IMG/VR virus record: IMGVR_UViG_3300032246_001892
Location: 1 to 64,000 of that record
DNA from: a virus
Reading direction: 5' to 3' (one strand)
DNA length: 64,000 bases
The position numbers and the translations under genes were made by a program. Positions 10,019 through 19,323 of the stretch are shown piece after piece (the first letter of the stretch is position 1; every line of letters starts with the position of its first letter). The notes below the pieces were generated by a model. The model was not told the DNA's origin. It saw nothing but the letters and a program-made list of their open reading frames with translations, and searched no databases.

Positions 10019-10092
10019 GCCTGGTTAGTTTAATGGTAAAACGGTTGATTTGTAATCATCAAACAAGAGTTCGATTCTCTTACTAGGCTCCA
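10019..10092 (+). tRNA. tRNA-Thr(TGT)
   Basis: Acceptor gcctggt/actaggc, anticodon loop TT-TGT-AA, TTCGATT T-loop, CCA encoded. Confidence 0.9.
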
Positions 10093-10130
10093 TTTTATAA
10101 AAATAGTCACCGATAGGATAAATATGATAT

Positions 10131-10580
10131 ATGAGTCCTACAGGCCTTAATATAACACAATATATTAATTTACGTAAAATAACTGGCAATGTTACATCTA
10201 CTTGTTGTTGTGGGAAACCCTTTACAAGGCAAAAACATAGAGCTGGTAAATACTGCAGTTTACAATGTTTAGCTGAAGCAAAAAAGCAAAAAGTTGGGGA
10301 ACAAAATATATCTTTGTTCAAAGAAGGTAAATTAACACATAGAAAAATTATAAAAAGAGTTATGCTAGCTATGGGAGTTGAACACAAATGTCAAATATGT
10401 GGACTAACTGAATGGTTAGATAAACCTATTTCAATGGTATTAGATCATATTAATGGTCGAGCGGATAATAATAGACCAGAAAATCTGCGACTTATTTGTC
10501 ATAATTGTGATTCTCAAACAGAACATTATAAAGGACGCAACAAAGGTAGAGGACGTAAATCATTGGGTTTAATTAAATAA
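10131..10580 (+). CDS. HNH endonuclease (free-standing homing type)
   Basis: CQICG..LDHINGRADNNRPENLRLICHNCDSQT. Confidence 0.9.
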   Translation: MSPTGLNITQYINLRKITGNVTSTCCCGKPFTRQKHRAGKYCSLQCLAEAKKQKVGEQNISLFKEGKLTHRKIIKRVMLAMGVEHKCQICGLTEWLDKPISMVLDHINGRADNNRPENLRLICHNCDSQTEHYKGRNKGRGRKSLGLIK

Positions 10581-10586
10581 AAGCTT

Positions 10587-10612
10587 CGTGAGTTCGAATC
10601 TCACCTCAGGCT
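10587..10612 (+). pseudogene. Orphan tRNA 3' fragment (T-arm plus acceptor 3' strand)
   Basis: gtgag-TTCGAAT-ctcac-ctcaggc-t; no matching 5' half seen upstream. Confidence 0.8.
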
Positions 10613-10792
10613 CTCTTACCGCAATTAAGGGGGATAAGTATATATGTGTTGGATCCATTAGAGGCTGCAATGACTGGGTTGATGTTACTCCCGTTTGTAA
10701 TTTGTTATACAATCTTTTTAATAATCAAATATTCACGTAAGATTCTTCTTGCAATTTCTCGTAAGGTGTTTTAATATACATCATAGCAATAA

Positions 10793-10806
10793 GTCCTCAT
10801 AGTGTA
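10793..10806 (+). pseudogene. Orphan tRNA 5' stub
   Basis: gtcctca-TAGTGTA, after a promoter-like sequence and fused directly to tRNA-Glu, which begins gctcctg-TAGTGTA. Confidence 0.5.
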
Positions 10807-10884
10807 GCTCCTGTAGTGTAATTGGTTAACACATCCCCCTTTCACGGGGAAGACTTACGGGTTCGAACCCCGTCAGGAGTACCA
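10807..10884 (+). tRNA. tRNA-Glu(TTC)
   Basis: tcccc-CT-TTC-AC-gggga; acceptor gctcctg/caggagt; CCA. Confidence 0.92.
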
Positions 10885-10933
10885 TATAATTTATACAGAA
10901 GCTTACAGAAGTGATAAAGGAAGAAAATTGAAC

Positions 10934-11021
10934 GGAGCGATGCCTGAGAGGTTTAAAGGAGAATTCTACTAAAATTCCGAGGTCTAATACACCTCCGTGG
11001 GTTCGAATCCCACTCGCTCTT
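10934..11021 (+). tRNA. tRNA-Ser(ACT), class II, rare A34 anticodon
   Basis: ggagcga/tcgctct; gaatt-CT-ACT-AA-aattc; variable stem gaggt/acctc; gtggg-TTCGAAT-cccac. Confidence 0.85.
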
Positions 11022-11024
11022 AAT

Positions 11025-11116
11025 GGCAGGTTGGTAGAGTCTGGTTTATTGCACCGCACTTGAAATGCGGAGAACTTTTATCGGTTCCGTGGGTTCGAAT
11101 CCCACACCTGCTTCCA
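11025..11116 (+). tRNA. tRNA-Ser(TGA)
   Basis: ccgca-CT-TGA-AA-tgcgg; long variable arm; CCA. Confidence 0.92.
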
Positions 11117-11122
11117 TTTTTT

Positions 11123-11194
11123 GCCTGATGAGACAGCAAGAGAAGTCCACGGTCTGCAAAACCGTTATGTTCGGAGCGTTACCGAAATCAGGCT
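11123..11194 (+). tRNA. tRNA-Cys(GCA), atypical T-loop
   Basis: gcctgat/atcaggc; acggt-CT-GCA-AA-accgt; ttcgg-AGCGTTA-ccgaa. Confidence 0.8.
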
Positions 11195-11238
11195 CATTTT
11201 TTATGATTTTTAGACCCTTGCTTAGTAAGTATATGTAT

Positions 11239-11853
11239 ATGAATAATTTTTACTATCTATACAAAATAACCAATTTAATTAATAAAAAATATTATATAGG
11301 TGTCCATAGTACTAATAATTTAGATGATGGGTATATGGGATCTGGAAAATTGATATTAAAAGCTATAAAAAAATATGGAAACAAAAATTTTAAAAAAGAA
11401 ATATTAGAGTGGTTTAATACAGAAGAAGAAATGTACAAAAAAGAAATTGAAATTGTTAATGAAGAATTCGTAAATGATAAAACAAACTACAATGTCAAGC
11501 TTGGCGGGCCAGCTAATTTTTATTATATAAATAAAAACAAATTAAACCATAAAAAAAATCAACACTTAATACATGCTAACAAATTAAAATCTGATCCAGA
11601 ATATAGAAAAAGATTTGTTGAAAAAATGAAAAATGCCTTATCAAAGGAAAAGCGATTAGAGTATAGCAAAAGGATGAAAGAGAATAATTGTAATAGAAAT
11701 AGATTTTGGATATCAAACGATTTTTATAAAAAATCTAAAATGGTAACACAAGAACAGTTTGATGTTCTGTTAAATCAAAATTGGTATAAGGGTGTAAAAT
11801 ATAGAAAGAATAGATCGGTTCAAATCCAGTCCGGCGCTCCATATATGGGGTAA
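11239..11853 (+). CDS. GIY-YIG (Seg-like) homing endonuclease; start at 11233 or 11239, not 11065
   Basis: YLYKITNLINKKYYIGVHST..DGYMGSG..YNVKLGG; the track's N-terminal extension is translated tRNA sequence. Confidence 0.9.
   Translation: MNNFYYLYKITNLINKKYYIGVHSTNNLDDGYMGSGKLILKAIKKYGNKNFKKEILEWFNTEEEMYKKEIEIVNEEFVNDKTNYNVKLGGPANFYYINKNKLNHKKNQHLIHANKLKSDPEYRKRFVEKMKNALSKEKRLEYSKRMKENNCNRNRFWISNDFYKKSKMVTQEQFDVLLNQNWYKGVKYRKNRSVQIQSGAPYMG
11817..11841 (+). pseudogene. Orphan tRNA 3' fragment inside the end of the GIY-YIG ORF
   Basis: gg-TTCAAAT-ccagt-ccggcgc-t-CCA. Confidence 0.75.
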
Positions 11854-11861
11854 GTATTAAT

Positions 11862-12215
11862 ATGTTTACAAGAATTAAAGACGCTCTTCAAGGCAAAGCT
11901 CCTATAACAGCTTCACGTTCCCCTAAATGGGCTGGTGTGAGAGAAAGTCATTTAAAACAACATCCTACTTGTGCAGTATGTGAAGGAAACGAAAATCTTA
12001 ATGTTCATCATATTAAACCCTTTCACTTACATCCAGAATTAGAATTAGAACCCACTAATCTTGTAACTCTTTGTGAATGTGAAAAACATGGTGTAAATTG
12101 CCATTTGCTTATAGGTCATATAGGTAATTTTCACAATATTAATCCTCATGTATTAGAAGATATTCCAATTTGGAACGAGAGATTAAAAGAAAAAAACGAT
12201 AACCCAGACGTATAG
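11862..12215 (+). CDS. HNH endonuclease
   Basis: CAVC..VHHIKP..NLVTLC..CHLLIGH. Confidence 0.85.
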   Translation: MFTRIKDALQGKAPITASRSPKWAGVRESHLKQHPTCAVCEGNENLNVHHIKPFHLHPELELEPTNLVTLCECEKHGVNCHLLIGHIGNFHNINPHVLEDIPIWNERLKEKNDNPDV

Positions 12216-12255
12216 TCATTGCTTTATCAGCTAAAACGTATTAATATAAATAATA

Positions 12256-12329
12256 CGTGATGTAGCCCAATGGTTAAGGCGCCTGGTTTGGGACCAGGAG
12301 ATTTGAGAGTTCGAGTCTCTCCATCACGA
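12256..12329 (+). tRNA. tRNA-Pro(TGG)
   Basis: cgtgatg/catcacg; cctgg-TT-TGG-GA-ccagg. Confidence 0.92.
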
Positions 12330-12339
12330 TAAAGTTCAT

Positions 12340-12415
12340 TCCTCGGTAGCTCAATTGGTAGAGCATGCGACTGTTAATCGCAGGGTTGCTGGATCGTACC
12401 CAGCCCGGGGAGCCA
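12340..12415 (+). tRNA. tRNA-Asn(GTT)
   Basis: tgcga-CT-GTT-AA-tcgca; T-loop ATCGTAC; CCA. Confidence 0.9.
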
Positions 12416-12476
12416 CTTTTAAAAACAATAATTTAATCTATTTGATTTAACTATCTAAATCCCTTATAATAAAAAC

Positions 12477-13472
12477 ATGATTGAATATGTAGACATCATC
12501 GTGGGTCTTGCTTGGGGTGATGAAGGTAAAGGTAAAATCTCAAGTGCTCTTGCAGAGAACTATGATATGGTATGTCGTTGGAACGGAGGTCCTAATGCAG
12601 GGCATACTGTTTACATAGATAATAAAAAATACAAGACGCATCTTATCCCATCTGGAGTGTTTCATGGTAAGCCTTCTATCATCGGTCCTAATTGTGTAAT
12701 AAATCTTGAAAAATTTAATGAAGAATTAATTTATCTTGATGATAATGGATTTGATGCAAGTTTAGTAAAAGTGCATCCCAACGCTCACATTATTACAGAA
12801 GATCATATTCAATATGATTTAAATTATCTTAAACCTAAATTAGGAACTACTGGACAGGGTATAGCTCCTTGTTATGCAGATAAAGCAAATAGAGTTGGTA
12901 TTCAAGCATGGACTCAATTAGATAAAAAATATATATGGGACATGAAGTTGAAAGGTAAGATTCTTTGTGAAGGAGCGCAAAGCATTTGGCTTGATATTAA
13001 TTGGGGAGATTATCCTTATGTAACAAGCAGTGAGACATTTCCTCATAATGCATGCTCTCTTGGATTCTCGCCAAAGAAGATTCGAGACATTATAGGTGTA
13101 GCAAAAATTTACGATACTAAAAGTGGTGTAGATCCTTTATTCCCCGAGACTCTCTGGGATGATCCAATTCTTAATAAGATCATAGAGATTGGCAATGAAA
13201 AGGGAACCACCACCGGAAGAAAGCGAATTGTTAATTGGTTGAATGTATCAAAACTTATTAATGCAATTAATCTTTCAGGTGTTAATAAATTAATCATTAA
13301 CAAATGTGATGTATTAGATCAAGTAGGAGAGTTTAAATTATATCATAAAAATGGATTTATGACTTTTGAACATTTACATGCTTTGCAAGTATGGTTAGAA
13401 ATTTTTATCATAGAAGCTACAGAAATCAAAAGAAAAGATATTGTATTTTCTGGAGACGTGACTAAGATATGA
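12477..13472 (+). CDS. purA: Adenylosuccinate synthetase (short form)
   Basis: WGDEGKGK, GGPNAGHT, GTTGQGI, EGAQ, GTTTGRKR, NKCD. Confidence 0.92.
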   Translation: MIEYVDIIVGLAWGDEGKGKISSALAENYDMVCRWNGGPNAGHTVYIDNKKYKTHLIPSGVFHGKPSIIGPNCVINLEKFNEELIYLDDNGFDASLVKVHPNAHIITEDHIQYDLNYLKPKLGTTGQGIAPCYADKANRVGIQAWTQLDKKYIWDMKLKGKILCEGAQSIWLDINWGDYPYVTSSETFPHNACSLGFSPKKIRDIIGVAKIYDTKSGVDPLFPETLWDDPILNKIIEIGNEKGTTTGRKRIVNWLNVSKLINAINLSGVNKLIINKCDVLDQVGEFKLYHKNGFMTFEHLHALQVWLEIFIIEATEIKRKDIVFSGDVTKI

Positions 13473-13478
13473 AAGCAA

Positions 13479-13551
13479 TACGGAGTAGCTCAATTGGTAG
13501 AGCAGCAGAATTTGGATCTGCTGGTTCTAGGTTCGATTCCTAGCTCCGTAG
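13479..13551 (+). tRNA. tRNA-Gln(TTG)
   Basis: tacggag/ctccgta; gcaga-AT-TTG-GA-tctgc. Confidence 0.88.
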
Positions 13552-13594
13552 CTTTTTTATTGATATTCCTGATTAATTAATTTAATATATACAC

Positions 13595-13951
13595 ATGAAT
13601 GAAGAACAAAAAGTGATTGTTATTACTATGATGGAATCGTATACCACTTACGAAAATCATGGCACACTTAAGATTGATTTAGAAAATTGGGTAGAACTTG
13701 ATGGCAAGGATAAAAATGAAATTGCAGAATGGTTAAATAATAATTCTGATAATCTTTTTGTTGATACAACTACCGGTGAGATTAAAAGAGATCAATTTTA
13801 TAAATATGATCAAGAAGAATTGGATGATATGTTAGTAAACGGAGAAGAAAAAGAAGTTGATGAAGATATTATTCCTTTATATGAATATCGGCAGAACACA
13901 GAAGTAATCTCAGATAGAATTAAAAACGAACAGAAATATCTTTATATTTAA
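13595..13951 (+). CDS. Acidic hypothetical protein
   Basis: D/E-rich ORF behind a promoter-like sequence. Confidence 0.7.
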   Translation: MNEEQKVIVITMMESYTTYENHGTLKIDLENWVELDGKDKNEIAEWLNNNSDNLFVDTTTGEIKRDQFYKYDQEELDDMLVNGEEKEVDEDIIPLYEYRQNTEVISDRIKNEQKYLYI

Positions 13952-13958
13952 AATAAAT

Positions 13959-14041
13959 GGGTCGGTACCGAAGTGGCCAAACGGGGAGCTCTGTAAAAGC
14001 TTTGTCATTCGACTTCGAAGGTTCGAATCCTTCCCGGCCCA
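13959..14041 (+). tRNA. tRNA-Tyr(GTA)
   Basis: gggtcgg/ccggccc; gagct-CT-GTA-AA-agctt; long variable arm. Confidence 0.92.
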
Positions 14042-14093
14042 CATTAAATAATATTATTTACAAAAAAAATGTAAATCCATGGTAAGTAATTAC

Positions 14094-14474
14094 ATGGAAA
14101 AAACATGCACTCAATGTAAACAAACAAAATCAATAGACTCCTTTACGAAAAAGAAGAGTAAAATAGGAAAATATTATAGTTGGTGTAAAGTATGTTTGAG
14201 CATATACAATCGTAAGAAGTTTAAAAACAGAAAACAAGAAATATTAGATATATTAAAAATTAAAGAATGTGTTAGATGTGGATATAAAAAGTATTTAGGG
14301 GCTTTAGAATTTCACCATGAAAAGGGGGATAAAAAATTTAATTTATCTAAAAATCAATCAATAGAACGAAGTATAGAAGAAGCAAAAAAATGTATAGTTT
14401 TATGCTCTAATTGTCACAAAGAAGAACATTATTTTTTACATAATAAAAAACGCCCACCATTTTATGAAAATTAA
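14094..14474 (+). CDS. HNH endonuclease with N-terminal Zn finger
   Basis: CTQC..CKVC; CVRCGY..LEFHH..KCIVLCSNCHKEEH. Confidence 0.85.
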   Translation: MEKTCTQCKQTKSIDSFTKKKSKIGKYYSWCKVCLSIYNRKKFKNRKQEILDILKIKECVRCGYKKYLGALEFHHEKGDKKFNLSKNQSIERSIEEAKKCIVLCSNCHKEEHYFLHNKKRPPFYEN

Positions 14475-15141
14475 AACAGATCTCACAAAAATATGTGACG
14501 GAATTTATCTATGTGAAATGGATAATAGATATGATCTTGCAATGACTTTTTGTAGAGTACAAGAATTTTATGAGTCTGCTTTTAAAGAAATAAGAGGTAA
14601 AAGTTTTTCTATGATGAAATTCCAAAGATTATATTCTTTGAAACGGGAAGGTTGTTTTTCATATCCACTAGATTGGGCAGGATTCAATATCCCAAGTAGT
14701 ATATTGGAAAAGTTTTATAAGGGAGATTGGATGTCTAATGACTGGAATGAATATGATGGTGTCTTTAAAAAAATTGTGAATCAAATAGGCGAAGATAAAC
14801 CATTTTATTTAATTGCTTCAGAAAAGAATCAAAAACAAACCGTAGATCATGAGTTATGCCATGCTTTTTATAATTTAAATAAGGATTATAAAAGTAGTGT
14901 TGATAAAATGATTAATAGTATTCCCAAGACTCTTCTCAATAAAATGAAGAAGGTTCTTAAAGATACCGGCTACTGTGATAGAGTGATGAAAGACGAGATA
15001 CAGGCATACCTTTCCTGTGACCATAATTATTTTTCACACCAAGGACGTTTGTCTGATATAGATGATAAAAGAATAGAAAAATTTGAAAAGTTATTTCAAA
15101 ACCATTTTAACAAACACATATCCCTAAATATAACAAAATGA
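14464..15141 (+). CDS. Hypothetical protein with HExxH motif
   Basis: HELCH...DEIQAY. Confidence 0.65.
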   Translation: MKIKTDLTKICDGIYLCEMDNRYDLAMTFCRVQEFYESAFKEIRGKSFSMMKFQRLYSLKREGCFSYPLDWAGFNIPSSILEKFYKGDWMSNDWNEYDGVFKKIVNQIGEDKPFYLIASEKNQKQTVDHELCHAFYNLNKDYKSSVDKMINSIPKTLLNKMKKVLKDTGYCDRVMKDEIQAYLSCDHNYFSHQGRLSDIDDKRIEKFEKLFQNHFNKHISLNITK

Positions 15142-16301
15142 ATTTTAAAGATTTCTACAATAATGAAGAGGGGTATATGGTTCTCCTTAAAGACATACCG
15201 GTAAGCGAGGCTCTTTCTTATCACTTAAAACATAAATTAACTTTATGTGAAAACCACTTTAGAATATATTCTAAAGCATATTTTGATTTAATTGCTGAAG
15301 CAAGAGATCTTTATAATAGGAATCTTTTATCTTTAAATGATGAAGATGCAGAAATGGTAGAGTCAAATCTAGGAGAAAAGGCATTATATGAAGGAAGAGA
15401 AGTGTTTTTAGAGGCTCCTCTTACATTCAATGAAGATGTAATAACGGAAGCGATCGCGGTTATTCCTCATAATTCAATTCATACCAAAATCTTTGTTGAT
15501 ATGGATGGCGTGCTTTGTGATCTATATAATGTAGTGGCTTCAGAATTGAACATCCCTCTTGAAGAATTGACTCCTGGGGATTATGCTGGATTTTTCAAAT
15601 CTCATGCTGATGATGCAGATGATGTTTTTGCTAATTTGCCAAAATACGAATCAGCAGATTTCTTAATTAAAATAGTCAATGATTTAGCAGGAGAATATCG
15701 TATTTGCTCCGCTCAACTTAAAAATCACGATTCGACAAAAGTGATATCTGGAAAGAATCAATGGCTTGATAATAATTTAGAGGATCAGCCAGTTGAGAGA
15801 ATTTTTACCAGGGAAAAATATAAACATGCTACTACAGACGGCAAACCTAATATTTTAATTGATGATTGGAAAGAAAATATCAATGATTGGAATGATGCCG
15901 GCGGAATAGGAATTCTTTATTCAGCTGAGAGAGATGGTCTAGATACTTTAATAGAGAAATTATTAGAAGCTAAAGAACTTCTTGACAATAGATATAAAGG
16001 TGTGGTCATGACTGAAGCCAAAGTACATGGTAAAAATGTAAAGCTTAATAAACCCTTTAGAACTCCAGGAGGTCCTAAGAAGTTTGCAGTTTATGTAAAA
16101 ACTCCTAAAGGCACAGTTAAGAAAGTTACATTCGGAGATCCTAATATGAGAGTTCGTAATGCTAGTAAAGCAAGAGCGAAGTCTTTTAGAGCAAGACATA
16201 AATGTTCTCAGAAAAAGGATAGAACGACTGCTGGGTATTGGAGCTGTAATGTATCAAGATATAGAAAAGCATTAGGGTTAAAATCAACAAGAGCCTGGTA
16301 A
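15138..16301 (+). CDS. Fusion: phage protein with an internal HAD 5'(3')-deoxyribonucleotidase domain
   Basis: IFVDMDGVLCD..K.QWL..NILIDDW..N..W..AGGIGI in the middle; C-terminal KLNKPFRTPGGPKKFAVYVK..SFRARHKC..GYWSC. Confidence 0.75.
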   Translation: MNFKDFYNNEEGYMVLLKDIPVSEALSYHLKHKLTLCENHFRIYSKAYFDLIAEARDLYNRNLLSLNDEDAEMVESNLGEKALYEGREVFLEAPLTFNEDVITEAIAVIPHNSIHTKIFVDMDGVLCDLYNVVASELNIPLEELTPGDYAGFFKSHADDADDVFANLPKYESADFLIKIVNDLAGEYRICSAQLKNHDSTKVISGKNQWLDNNLEDQPVERIFTREKYKHATTDGKPNILIDDWKENINDWNDAGGIGILYSAERDGLDTLIEKLLEAKELLDNRYKGVVMTEAKVHGKNVKLNKPFRTPGGPKKFAVYVKTPKGTVKKVTFGDPNMRVRNASKARAKSFRARHKCSQKKDRTTAGYWSCNVSRYRKALGLKSTRAW

Positions 16302-16564
16302 TGAGTCAACCTTATCAAGAAGAAATAATTTCTAGTAAAGAAGTTATTAGGAATTTCTCAGAAACTTTAGACGAGGAAGATCTGAAGTGGCACTTTGACA
16401 ACGAAGATAGAGTCGTTGAAGTTTTAGAACCAACGGACTGGCTTATTCAATTTGATAATCTATTGCCCGAATCTATAGAAGGTACATTATATATCCCAGC
16501 AGGAGTTTATCATAGAGTTATAAAAGGAACAAAAGATTTTAAAATAAAAATTAAAAAATCTTGA
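16301..16564 (+). CDS. Cupin-like protein
   Basis: WHFD..E..IPAGVYHRVIKG. Confidence 0.65.
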   Translation: MSQPYQEEIISSKEVIRNFSETLDEEDLKWHFDNEDRVVEVLEPTDWLIQFDNLLPESIEGTLYIPAGVYHRVIKGTKDFKIKIKKS

Positions 16565-16600
16565 TCTTTCTGCAAAGGCGTGTTAATATAATCATGTCAA

Positions 16601-16620
16601 GCACGAGTAGCTTAGCGGTA
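16601..16620 (+). pseudogene. tRNA 5' stub complementary to the 3' end at 17572-17582
   Basis: gcacgag-TA-GCTTAGCGGTA; gcacgag pairs with ctcgtgt. Confidence 0.8.
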
Positions 16621-16628
16621 TAAAATAT

Positions 16629-16702
16629 GGGGATTTAGTTAAAAAGTATAACGCCTGATTTACACTCAGGAGTCGTTGGAGCATTACCATCAGTCCCTAC
16701 CA
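16629..16702 (+). tRNA. tRNA-Val(TAC), atypical T-loop
   Basis: ggggatt/agtccct; cctga-TT-TAC-AC-tcagg; T-loop AGCATTA; CCA. Confidence 0.8.
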
Positions 16703-17413
16703 CTTTAATAATAGATTCTTTTATTAAATGTTTTTTCCCTAGAATAATAATTTTAACATTATTTTGTTCTGCTGTTCTTTTAATTTTATCTATATCAGTT
16801 TTAATTAAGAAATCATTTTTTGGATCAAGATATACATTATACATAGGTAGATAAAAATCTGGGTAATATCTTCTTTGTTGGTTTTTATTATCTTTGTACC
16901 AAAAAAAGAAGGTCTGATCCATAATATTTTTAAATTATTCAATATATTTGAAAGAGTAACTTCATATGAACTTTCTGCCACAAAAATTTCACCCTTTATG
17001 TTTGAAATTTTGCTTCTGTGTGTATGCTTTTGACCGCCACATTTAGGATTTATAGTTGATGTTATTTTATTCCAATTTACAAGACAATCTTTGCAGCAAG
17101 TTTTTAAATAAGGAGACCCTGTGTCTTTTTGACAAAAATTACATAGAAGATTCGGTTTATCGCACGTGGGTGTTATACCTCTTTTTCTTAAAGATTCTAT
17201 ACATTTTTGTTTGGTTTTTTCTGATTGTTTATATCCTAAAAGTTTTTCTTTTACCTTTTTCTTAAATTCTTCAGTTCTTGCGCCTCTACTATTAGAACAA
17301 GATCTAGAACAAAATCTTAAAGGAGTATTAATAGCTTTTTTGTCTTTTCTCCATTCATGTTTTATTTTTTTACAACATTTTAAACAAATATTTGAACCTG
17401 TAAAAGTTTTCAT
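16635..17413 (-). CDS. PD-(D/E)XK-type (TnsA-like) putative homing endonuclease split by a -1 frameshift (possible pseudogene)
   Basis: ORF 17413-16805 carries CSRSC Zn motifs and ESSYE..WIRP; ORF 16922-16635 continues WYKD..RRYYPDFYLP..YLDPK; the junction is a T7 run at 16901-16907. Confidence 0.75.
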
Positions 17414-17507
17414 AACAAAATTTTAAATACTTACGTGATAAGGGTTCGAATATAAGTAAATTATATAAATGTTAGATATATATATACAAATTTGTATTTA
17501 AATGAAT

Positions 17508-17582
17508 GGGGGTGTAGTGCTAATGGTAACACGCAGCCTTAGCAAGGCCGAGTTAAGGGTTCGAATCCCTCCTCGTGTACCA
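17508..17582 (+). tRNA. Chimeric tRNA-Ala(AGC) with a non-pairing acceptor stem (likely pseudo)
   Basis: gggggtg..cagcc-TT-AGC-AA-ggccg..aaggg-TTCGAAT-ccctc-ctcgtgt-A-CCA; three acceptor mismatches. Confidence 0.75.
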
Positions 17583-17606
17583 CGCCTCTATCCCTAAATA
17601 AAAATC

Positions 17607-17933
17607 ATGAATCTAGGGGATTTTGTGATTTTGACAAGCATTTTTTATCTGCTGTCATTTTTCTGCTTTTTTATATATAGACATTTTTATCCCAGTAAAG
17701 CATTTTTAGTTGAAGGTGGTTATCAATATGTATTGTGGGATATGAGACAATACAGACATAAAAAATATGAATTGAATCCCAAAGTATTGAGAACCTCTAT
17801 TAGGATTTACGTTAGGGGTGTAGATAAACATAATAGCAGAGAAATTACTAAGTGTGTTTTGCAAAAATTAATAGATAATAATATATTGGAATTGGATACT
17901 AATGGTAATAAAGACATATATTATAAAAAATGA
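17607..17933 (+). CDS. Membrane-anchored hypothetical protein
   Basis: N-terminal TM; TAAATA motif upstream. Confidence 0.6.
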   Translation: MNLGDFVILTSIFYLLSFFCFFIYRHFYPSKAFLVEGGYQYVLWDMRQYRHKKYELNPKVLRTSIRIYVRGVDKHNSREITKCVLQKLIDNNILELDTNGNKDIYYKK

Positions 17934-18732: not shown

Positions 18733-19323
18733 ATGAATTTGGAACATCTTAGAAGAGAGACCGTTTTAGTTTTAAATAGGAATTGGCAAGCAATTCACGT
18801 TAAGTCCCCTGCAGAAGCATTGTCAATGATGTTTACAGATACTGCTACAGGTTTAGATATTAGAGGAAATGATGACATGGCTCCTTATAAATGGGACAAA
18901 TGGATTGGTCTTCCATATGATGAAAATGCTTTTTATATTAAAACTATAAGAGGCGAAATTAAGATTCCTAAAATTATCATCTTATCATCCTTTGATAAAG
19001 TGCCACAAAAAAGACCTAAATTTTCAAGCAGAGGTGTTTGGATGAGAGACGGAGGTGTGTGTCAATACACTGGTCAAAAATTAACTCCTAATGAAGGGAA
19101 TATAGATCATATTATTCCAAGGTCTCGGGGAGGAGCTACTAATTGGTCCAATTGTGTTCTGGCACATAAAGAAGTTAATGCCAAGAAAGCAGATAAAACT
19201 CCTCAAGAAGCTGGGTTGAAATTAATCAGGACTCCTAAAGAACCCAAATCAATGCCTACTACTTTTTACATCAGGAACAAACACAAGATTAAAGAATGGG
19301 ATATGTTTTTAAAATATGAATAG
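18733..19323 (+). CDS. HNH endonuclease
   Basis: VLVLN..RDGGVCQY..IDHIIPRSRGGATNWSNCV..N..K. Confidence 0.88.
   Translation: MNLEHLRRETVLVLNRNWQAIHVKSPAEALSMMFTDTATGLDIRGNDDMAPYKWDKWIGLPYDENAFYIKTIRGEIKIPKIIILSSFDKVPQKRPKFSSRGVWMRDGGVCQYTGQKLTPNEGNIDHIIPRSRGGATNWSNCVLAHKEVNAKKADKTPQEAGLKLIRTPKEPKSMPTTFYIRNKHKIKEWDMFLKYE

Follow-up and report, generated by a model that had tools for sequence, protein, structure and literature searches.

A phage tRNA-Val gene split by a block carrying a homing-endonuclease-like gene and a non-canonical tRNA of the same anticodon

Homing nucleases are already known from the transfer RNA (tRNA) gene clusters of phages, as with T4 SegB and the T5 enzymes, and it has lately been shown that they drive the amplification of tRNA genes as a counter to host defences. 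SegB of phages T4 and T6 is a free-standing GIY-YIG homing endonuclease, encoded within a tRNA gene cluster (PMC2330249; PMC13096335). The T-arm motif GGTTCRANTCC is its recognition element, several tRNA genes are cut by it at their 3′ ends, and in crosses nearly 100 % of progeny inherit it, with neighbouring tRNA genes dragged along (PMC2330249); it also drives recombination-dependent rearrangement of tRNA segments (PMC13096335). Herein we describe a locus in the first 64 kb (hereafter the window, meaning the whole stretch of DNA that was analysed) of the 91,286-bp IMG/VR contig IMGVR_UViG_3300032246_001892, which derives from an uncultured, myovirus-like phage and has an estimated completeness of 42 % by CheckV. 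At this locus a resident tRNA-Val(UAC) gene is split by a block containing a second, non-canonical tRNA-Val(UAC), termed Val′, an antisense homing-endonuclease-like gene and a tRNA-Ala-like body. Very probably, the resident gene was overwritten by a SegB-like homing nuclease block that recombined through motifs conserved amongst tRNAs and brought its own isoacceptor with it.

The split site lies approximately 2.5 kb downstream of the tRNA cluster of the window (positions 10019–14042). Relatives were retrieved using the 387-aa protein encoded at 15138–16298, two genes upstream of the split tRNA, yielding 80 loci in viral contigs, amongst which two, L002 and L003, are collinear with the window across the site. 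Identity to the window is 74 and 71 %, respectively, for the upstream 87-aa gene, 44 and 40 % for the downstream 108-aa gene, and approximately 70 % in both for the phosphoribosyltransferase that follows. The approximately 200 bp between the flanking genes of L002 and L003 hold a single tRNA-Val(UAC) of 76 nt with an encoded CCA, as called by ARAGORN; no tRNA is found between these flanking genes in the remaining loci of the 80. The window aligns with both relatives through tRNA position 20, and then again from the T-stem onward. Of the 76 nt of the resident gene, the first 20 (16601–16620) and the last 26 (17557–17582) are left, and 936 bp (16621–17556) stand where some 30 nt, comprising the rest of the D arm, the anticodon arm and the variable loop, used to be. 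The locus is thus polymorphic, with the block present in the window and absent from L002 and L003 despite the same flanking genes. Exact-pattern scans of viral contigs with the stub and with the 3′ piece returned no match.

An earlier reading of this DNA, made from the sequence alone, had proposed a tRNA gene split by insertion, with junctions in the D loop and T arm, and the intact gene in two syntenic relatives bears this out; the uninterrupted tRNA for which it suggested searching relatives is the 76-nt gene of L002 and L003, the ends of which match the stub and the 3′ piece. The proposal of an insertion-split tRNA gene is thereby supported. Its picture of a plain insertion needs amendment, as the cargo was indeed inserted, but by a replacement in which part of the resident gene was lost. 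The gene so disrupted and the cargo Val′ are one and the same isoacceptor, tRNA-Val(UAC). In order along the window, the features concerned are as follows.

16561–16600, plus strand: upstream region of the resident tRNA-Val, AT-rich and promoter-like, with long runs identical to L002 and L003 up to the tRNA start.
16601–16620, plus strand: 5′ stub of the resident tRNA-Val(UAC), equivalent to intact positions 1–20 of L002 and L003, with 2–3 differences.
16621–16628, plus strand: AT-rich 8-nt spacer, the first bases of the imported block, without counterpart in L002 and L003.
16629–16702, plus strand: Val′, a non-canonical tRNA-Val(UAC), identified by Rfam score, encoded CCA and covariation.
16635–17413, minus strand: homing-endonuclease-like gene, free-standing and frameshifted, identified by open reading frames (ORFs), full-length homologues and the fold of a homologue.
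17439–17451, plus strand: orphan T-arm fragment of 13 nt (T-stem 5′ strand and T loop), an exact copy of 17554–17566.
17508–17556, plus strand: tRNA-Ala-like body with anticodon AGC and without a 3′ end of its own, with a sub-threshold Rfam score and stem mismatches.
17557–17582, plus strand: 3′ piece of the resident tRNA-Val(UAC), 26/26 identical to L003 and 25/26 to L002.

The 5′ stub contains the acceptor 5′ strand, positions 8–9, the D-stem 5′ strand and the D loop, with homology to L002 and L003 ending after 16620; the 3′ piece contains the T arm, the acceptor 3′ strand, the discriminator A and CCA. As the sequence-only reading had noticed, the stub pairs at 7 of 7 positions with 17572–17578, including one G–U, followed by A-CCA at 17579–17582, and this G–U, at acceptor pair 1–72, is ancestral. 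Several of its further observations hold equally well. The 13-nt direct repeat at 17439 and 17554 has exactly two copies in the 64 kb, and none in 100 shuffles. The 5′ strand of the Ala-like body does not match the 3′ strand to which it is fused, being mismatched at 3 of 7 positions, and the A–C mismatch at the first T-stem pair (49–65) does mark a crossover, with the sequence the same as in the relatives from 17557 on and the junction inside the T arm. The right crossover zone falls within 17556–17570, where a T-arm stretch of approximately 14 nt is common to the donor Ala and the resident Val. The tRNA-Val and antisense nuclease that had been read in the cargo are both there, the former by its Rfam score and the latter by its ORF, which is, however, split by a frameshift.

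Mismatches occur in all four stems of the Ala-like body, with one each in the anticodon and D stems in addition to those of the acceptor and T stems. Together with the fused T arm (17508–17571) it scores 24.2 bits with Rfam (17512–17574), below the cut-off of 29 bits, and is not called by ARAGORN, which finds no tRNA at all in 16601–17582. It is a decayed and truncated passenger of the imported block, and neither the body nor the spacer has a close match in any fetched locus. An alternative Ala 3′ strand at 17581–17587, forming 6 of 7 pairs, was considered and rejected as a likely chance match, lying 9 nt out of register. The AGC anticodon (17541–17543) of this chimeric, sub-cut-off pseudo-tRNA is one base from the usual UGC loop, and is therefore more likely to reflect decay than a used A34 tRNA.

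Val′ scores 49.6 bits with the Rfam tRNA model (RF00005; 16629–16699, anticodon UAC), against a cut-off of 29, placing it within the tRNA family. Its elbow is nevertheless not the canonical one of G18–G19 and T-psi-C: the D loop (AAAAGNA) lacks GG and the T loop (RGCRKUA) lacks T-psi-C, and it is for these reasons that ARAGORN misses it. A degenerate pattern matched Val′ in 15 viral contigs, with further copies in metagenome loci, and 14 distinct sequences align without gaps, except for the row from L164, which is truncated by its contig end. Across these, 99.3 % of cloverleaf cells pair (approximately 50 % in slid controls), and 13 of the 21 pairs have changed on both sides in compensatory fashion, a level reached in none of 500 shuffles. 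The anticodon UAC, the discriminator A, CCA and both odd loops are invariant. On this covariation, Val′ is a real and conserved tRNA family.

A covariance model built from Val′ (R1) finds one copy in the window, at 90.3 bits, and none in the DNA fetched for the 80 loci with the 387-aa protein, L002 and L003 included, so that the block looks foreign to these relatives. A search of the whole 91 kb contig with the Rfam tRNA model revealed no tRNA-Val besides Val′. As it also sits behind the upstream region of the resident gene, Val′ most likely took over GUA/GUG decoding, judging from this arrangement. The region 16561–16600 may act as a promoter for both stub and Val′; a scan for consensus promoters and terminators found nothing above background upstream of the resident gene. 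Elsewhere, Val′ also occurs without the nuclease, in the order Val′, canonical Val(UAC), Ala(UGC) in L256 and Val′, Ala(UGC) in L244. In L256 (6996–7069, minus strand) Val′ and the canonical tRNA-Val(UAC) stand in tandem, 4 nt apart and followed by tRNA-Ala(UGC), and two tRNAs with the same anticodon and different elbows are thus retained next to each other. Upstream of Val′ in another locus (L162:3190–3330, minus strand) lies a long element resembling a tRNA, in which an acceptor-like stem of 11 bp is combined with a canonical T arm. Neither Val′ nor close relatives of the nuclease were found in a collection of cultured and deposited phage genomes.

The nuclease gene is represented in the window by two overlapping antisense ORFs, 16805–17413 (202 aa) and 16635–16922 (95 aa). 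By comparison with all full-length homologues, there is a one-base frameshift in an A7 run at 16901–16907, and the gene, which has no intact frame as assembled, is either a pseudogene or the product of a homopolymer miscall. The C-terminal piece has 328 homologues in a large protein collection, typically 240–260 aa in length, and full-length examples span both window pieces in a single frame. A Cys-rich N-terminal part and a PD-(D/E)XK catalytic domain are predicted; the DNA-binding N-termini of homologues vary, some bearing NUMOD4, C2H2 finger or helix–turn–helix elements. A peptide-pattern search with the N-terminal half alone had no match, whilst alignment-based searching succeeded. Pfam returned no match for the window nuclease, nor for the catalytic part of any of the 328 homologues; PHROGs gave only weak matches, a GIY-YIG match was absent from both, and profile searching against PDB sequences was likewise without a relevant match.

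The fold was therefore taken from an AlphaFold model of one homologue (P0001; mean predicted local distance difference test score, pLDDT, of 82.5), of which residues 128–255 were compared structurally. The best matches are Vsr (Z 8.5), the catalytic domain of I-Bth0305I (3r3p; 7.6), TnsA (7.5) and Bax1 (7.5), with lower scores for VRR-NUC (7.1), Hjc (5.3) and I-Ssp6803I (4.3); Foldseek weakly recovered the same restriction-endonuclease-like families. The motifs P-D-F and then D-P-K are invariant in the nuclease alignments and fit a PD-(D/E)XK active site. The family is thus predicted to encode a PD-(D/E)XK DNA endonuclease domain, and by its modelled fold is neither a SegB nor a GIY-YIG protein; it would be SegB-like in working, with a different fold.

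The last 22 codons and stop of the nuclease gene lie antisense inside Val′, with the stop in the D arm. These 22 residues are conserved amongst the closest homologues and are modelled with a pLDDT of approximately 50. Nuclease-free copies of Val′ keep the same antisense frame open, so that conservation of the tail is explained by the tRNA, and the overlap, on this comparison, is a run-on of the nuclease frame into the Val′ gene.

An alignment-based search for the nuclease gave 80 viral and 80 metagenomic loci, and in 145 of these 160 ARAGORN places a tRNA within 1 kb of the nuclease homologue; 20 of the loci yielded 146 Rfam tRNA or transfer-messenger RNA matches. In 69 distinct cases the 3′ end of the nuclease gene abuts a tRNA or overlaps with it, whichever strand the tRNA occupies. 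Val(UAC) accounts for 19 of these 69, compared with 21 of the 712 tRNAs at other positions in these loci (odds ratio 12.5, Fisher p 2.6e-11, the counts not being phylogenetically independent). A maximum-likelihood tree was built quickly from 111 catalytic domains and is poorly resolved, with few columns; on it the Val label requires 7 changes, against a shuffled mean of 13.6, a count this low being reached in none of 1000 shuffles. The rows nearest to the window nuclease are L164 (the nearest), L166, L165, L167 and L082, in all five of which the 3′ end of the nuclease gene meets a tRNA-Val(UAC) encoded on the other strand; the latter four carry the Val(UAC) label, and L164 is unlabelled, its Val′ being cut by the contig end. 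The window nuclease is therefore placed within a Val(UAC)-linked lineage. Overall, this is an unnamed nuclease family with hundreds of members, found almost solely in tRNA clusters, and with lineages tied to particular tRNAs.

Comparable architectures recur at other loci. L254 carries, in order, tRNA-Asn, Val′, an intact antisense nuclease approximately 55 % identical to that of the window, a partial T-arm copy, tRNA-Ala(UGC) and an orphan Val-like T arm and 3′ end. The T-arm copy derives from the downstream tRNA-Ala, and the whole presents the cargo order of the window with the Ala gene still intact. Six contigs from different samples, of a type represented by L242, share a 28-nt tRNA 5′ stub, a short AT-rich spacer that opens with the same 7-mer as the window spacer, and Val′, followed by what is left of the nuclease gene (its last ~70 codons) and by a T arm with non-pairing halves; the unit ends in a 3′ strand that pairs with the stub. 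A 24-nt stretch of this stub was seen solely in the six insertion-bearing contigs, with no intact counterpart. In L162 Val′ is accompanied by an intact nuclease and by an orphan 3′ piece resembling that of Val; this locus, L164, L166 and L154 all show fragments of a T arm past the start of the nuclease gene, and L168 carries a 26-nt stub fused upstream of a nuclease-linked Val. Amongst these recurrent loci, left breaks fall after the D arm and right breaks in the T arm.

The insertion, its anatomy, the modelled fold, the linkage to tRNA genes and the recurrence at other loci are all borne out by the comparisons above. By analogy with SegB, and from the anatomy of the locus, we infer cleavage by this nuclease, together with its target site and the repair pathway, and would picture the event as follows. 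In a mixed infection, a Val-linked nuclease would cut the resident tRNA-Val gene, perhaps within the T arm, perhaps at the 3′ end, where SegB cuts, or else in the anticodon arm that has since been lost. The break would be repaired from the genome of the donor phage, with the block taken from its tRNA cluster and copied from just upstream of Val′ through the donor tRNA-Ala. Since Val′ is too diverged to act as a homology arm, this repair would have used short motifs common to tRNA genes. Resolution on the right would fall within the T arm of approximately 14 nt, joining the donor Ala to the resident 3′ end and thereby giving rise to the A–C mismatch, and on the left would fall at a point in the D loop. 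The acceptor-stem halves of the resident gene would stay as stubs on either side of the block, the 5′ stub then serving Val′ as its leader, downstream of the conserved upstream region. Later, the nuclease would have suffered its frameshift (unless the run is miscalled), and the tRNA-Ala copy would have decayed.

A number of observations weigh against this scenario. The relatives with the empty site are only approximately 70 % identical in their flanking proteins, which bears on the timing of the event, and a donor with the exact left junction of the window was not found amongst the fetched loci, so that the four-base microhomology in the D loop is putative. The nuclease is frameshifted as assembled, and so would have no present activity; both its activity and its target are predicted from fold and context, with fold matches that are moderate (Z 7–8.5). 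In addition, many members of the nuclease family abut canonical tRNAs and Val′ exists in nuclease-free form, so that Val′ is not simply an accessory of the nuclease.

A block of this kind could also be put in place by ordinary illegitimate or short-homology recombination between the tRNA clusters of co-infecting phages, with the nuclease gene a passenger. Such clusters are rich in short shared motifs, the crossover does lie in a shared T-arm stretch of 14 nt, the nuclease is frameshifted, and any of the 4–5 other nuclease genes in the cluster could have made the break. We nonetheless consider a passenger role unlikely, as the lineage of this nuclease is Val(UAC)-linked and the disrupted gene is precisely a tRNA-Val(UAC), and the stub architecture recurs around the same nuclease in unrelated contigs. 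This recurrence, in independent assemblies from at least six samples, bears equally on the idea that reads of two phages were joined at shared tRNA motifs, to which a metagenome assembly with junctions in or near such motifs might be thought prone. Assembly artefact is, however, highly improbable, as the contig would have to be misjoined twice and yet come back to one syntenic backbone, through shared stretches of just 4 and 14 nt, both shorter than the k-mers used by assemblers.

The sequence-only reading had also entertained a functional split tRNA, in which stub and 3′ end form a composite acceptor stem that is processed or charged, and the 7/7 complementarity of the two ends is what commends it. 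That complementarity is, however, inherited from the intact ancestral gene, and the claim falls with the missing middle of the gene: the anticodon arm is gone, the D-stem half in the stub is left without a partner, the Ala-like body has its own mismatched 5′ strand, and Val′, the sole tRNA-Val that Rfam finds in the 91 kb contig, offers the same anticodon. Trans-spliced split tRNAs have two complete halves, and here only 20 and 26 nt are left of 76, making such function extremely improbable. Finally, a PD-(D/E)XK nuclease inside a tRNA gene brings to mind a group I or II intron with its homing endonuclease, as with I-Ssp6803I in cyanobacterial tRNA-fMet. The chance of this is negligible, given that no intron or other Rfam family is matched in 16500–17700 even at E-values up to 10, that the junctions lie in the D loop and T arm rather than the anticodon loop, and that the cargo holds other tRNA genes; moreover, splicing could not restore the tRNA because 30 nt are deleted. 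Replacement by a SegB-like homing block is thus the explanation that we favour.

The odd loops of Val′ are not confined to this tRNA. Amongst all fetched loci, 36 distinct cloverleaf candidates with an RGCRKUA T loop and a D loop without GG were recovered, having 14 anticodons and covering Val, Cys, Trp, Ile, Lys, Pro, Phe, Ala, Asn, Thr, Gly and Tyr. Examples of these recoded-elbow tRNAs are listed here.

L217, at 994, 2890, 3916 and 4441.
L170 and L139.
L006, at 10089 and 10715.

They are modestly enriched at nuclease 3′ ends (7/24 vs 65/770, counts that are not independent). The notion that non-canonical tRNAs always accompany nucleases is weakened, as most nuclease 3′ ends abut canonical tRNAs and Val′ can stand alone; L006 likewise has two recoded-elbow tRNAs with no adjoining reading frame of >72 aa. 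Between tRNAs of the L006 cluster, a stretch of 480 bp (10237–10715) has no ORF of >67 aa, and may hold a non-coding RNA or tRNA debris. A search of deposited phage genomes did not recover the recoded-elbow family, and a 2020 review of non-canonical tRNAs does not mention those of phages.

Within the window, a tRNA-Cys(GCA) at 11123–11196 has U73 and a T loop as in Val′, is missed by both Rfam and ARAGORN, and is followed by a GIY-YIG gene (11239–11853). Of the canonical tRNA-Cys present in L002 and L003, the window retains only the last 25 nt and the downstream flank, at 11817–11849, where 29 consecutive bases match L002 inside and past the end of the GIY-YIG ORF. By its sequence, this tRNA-Cys reads as a second case in the same genome of a nuclease-linked recoded-elbow tRNA replacing a canonical gene of the same anticodon. 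The other nuclease genes of the window are of the HNH type, at 10131–10580, 11862–12215, 14079–14474 and 18733–19323. That at 14079–14474 is inserted right at the 3′ end of tRNA-Tyr (13959–14042), and the end of its ORF (14450–14476) is a duplicated tRNA-Tyr 3′ end with downstream flank, as in L003. The gene at 10131–10580 follows tRNA-Thr and is itself followed by an orphan T arm and acceptor 3′ strand (10587–10615), which differs from the resident tRNA-Thr and so would come from another allele.

It is tempting, if rather doubtful, to suppose that the nuclease-linked recoded-elbow tRNAs, Val′ and tRNA-Cys, are cleavage-immune replacement alleles, and that conflict created the whole tRNA class. 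A cassette of nuclease plus immune isoacceptor would then destroy the canonical tRNA gene bearing a SegB-type T-arm motif, and would supply a working copy of the tRNA without that motif. Irrespective of this, the locus provides a natural before-and-after pair, with two junctions that can both be read, in which a nuclease block has overwritten a tRNA gene sharing the anticodon of its own tRNA, along with a large unnamed nuclease family with a predicted restriction-enzyme-like fold, a protein gene with its end encoded antisense inside a tRNA gene, and a pointer to a phage tRNA class with a recoded elbow that is missed by finders such as ARAGORN. The shuffling of phage tRNA repertoires, and whether tRNA sequence evolves to escape nucleases, thereby become testable.

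Of the described systems, SegB is matched in several respects: a nuclease gene amongst phage tRNA genes, with its frame ending at or in a tRNA gene; presence in some and absence from others of a set of related phages; co-inheritance of flanking tRNA genes; rearranged tRNA segments; and a central T arm, which is the recognition element for SegB and the crossover point in the window. Unlike the GIY-YIG enzyme SegB, the window nuclease is predicted to be of the PD-(D/E)XK type and is encoded on the opposite strand, overlapping its tRNA in antisense; the block lies inside a tRNA gene, with both ends left as stubs, and the linked tRNA is non-canonical. SegB has also been studied biochemically, whereas the window family is known from sequence and predicted fold.

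I-Bth0305I is a phage-encoded, multi-domain homing nuclease, hosted by an intron in a protein-coding gene and having a different active-site motif. Its catalytic domain is amongst the closest fold matches, just below the Vsr repair nuclease, but there is no match at the sequence level, and the window family is free-standing and tied to tRNA genes. I-Ssp6803I, of a group I intron, shares the same broad fold class and an interrupted tRNA gene. It is, however, intron-encoded, with its tRNA restored by splicing, whereas the window locus has no intron and has lost part of the tRNA, and the fold match is low.

The halves of archaeal split tRNAs are complete, and are guided together by long complementary leader sequences. 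As in Nanoarchaeum and Caldivirga, where such halves are joined in trans, 5′ and 3′ parts are encoded apart in the window; unlike them, these parts have no such leaders, lack the middle third of the molecule and derive from an intact gene. In Aeromonas phage Aeh1, the two pieces of nrdA split by mobE still make a working enzyme, in contrast to the split tRNA-Val, which is dead and whose function has most likely been replaced by a gene of the cargo. What the two loci have in common is a free-standing homing nuclease, or in the window a gene resembling one, the insertion of which splits a resident gene, nrdA in the case of Aeh1 (mentioned in PMC2330249 and PMC2790892) and tRNA-Val(UAC) here.

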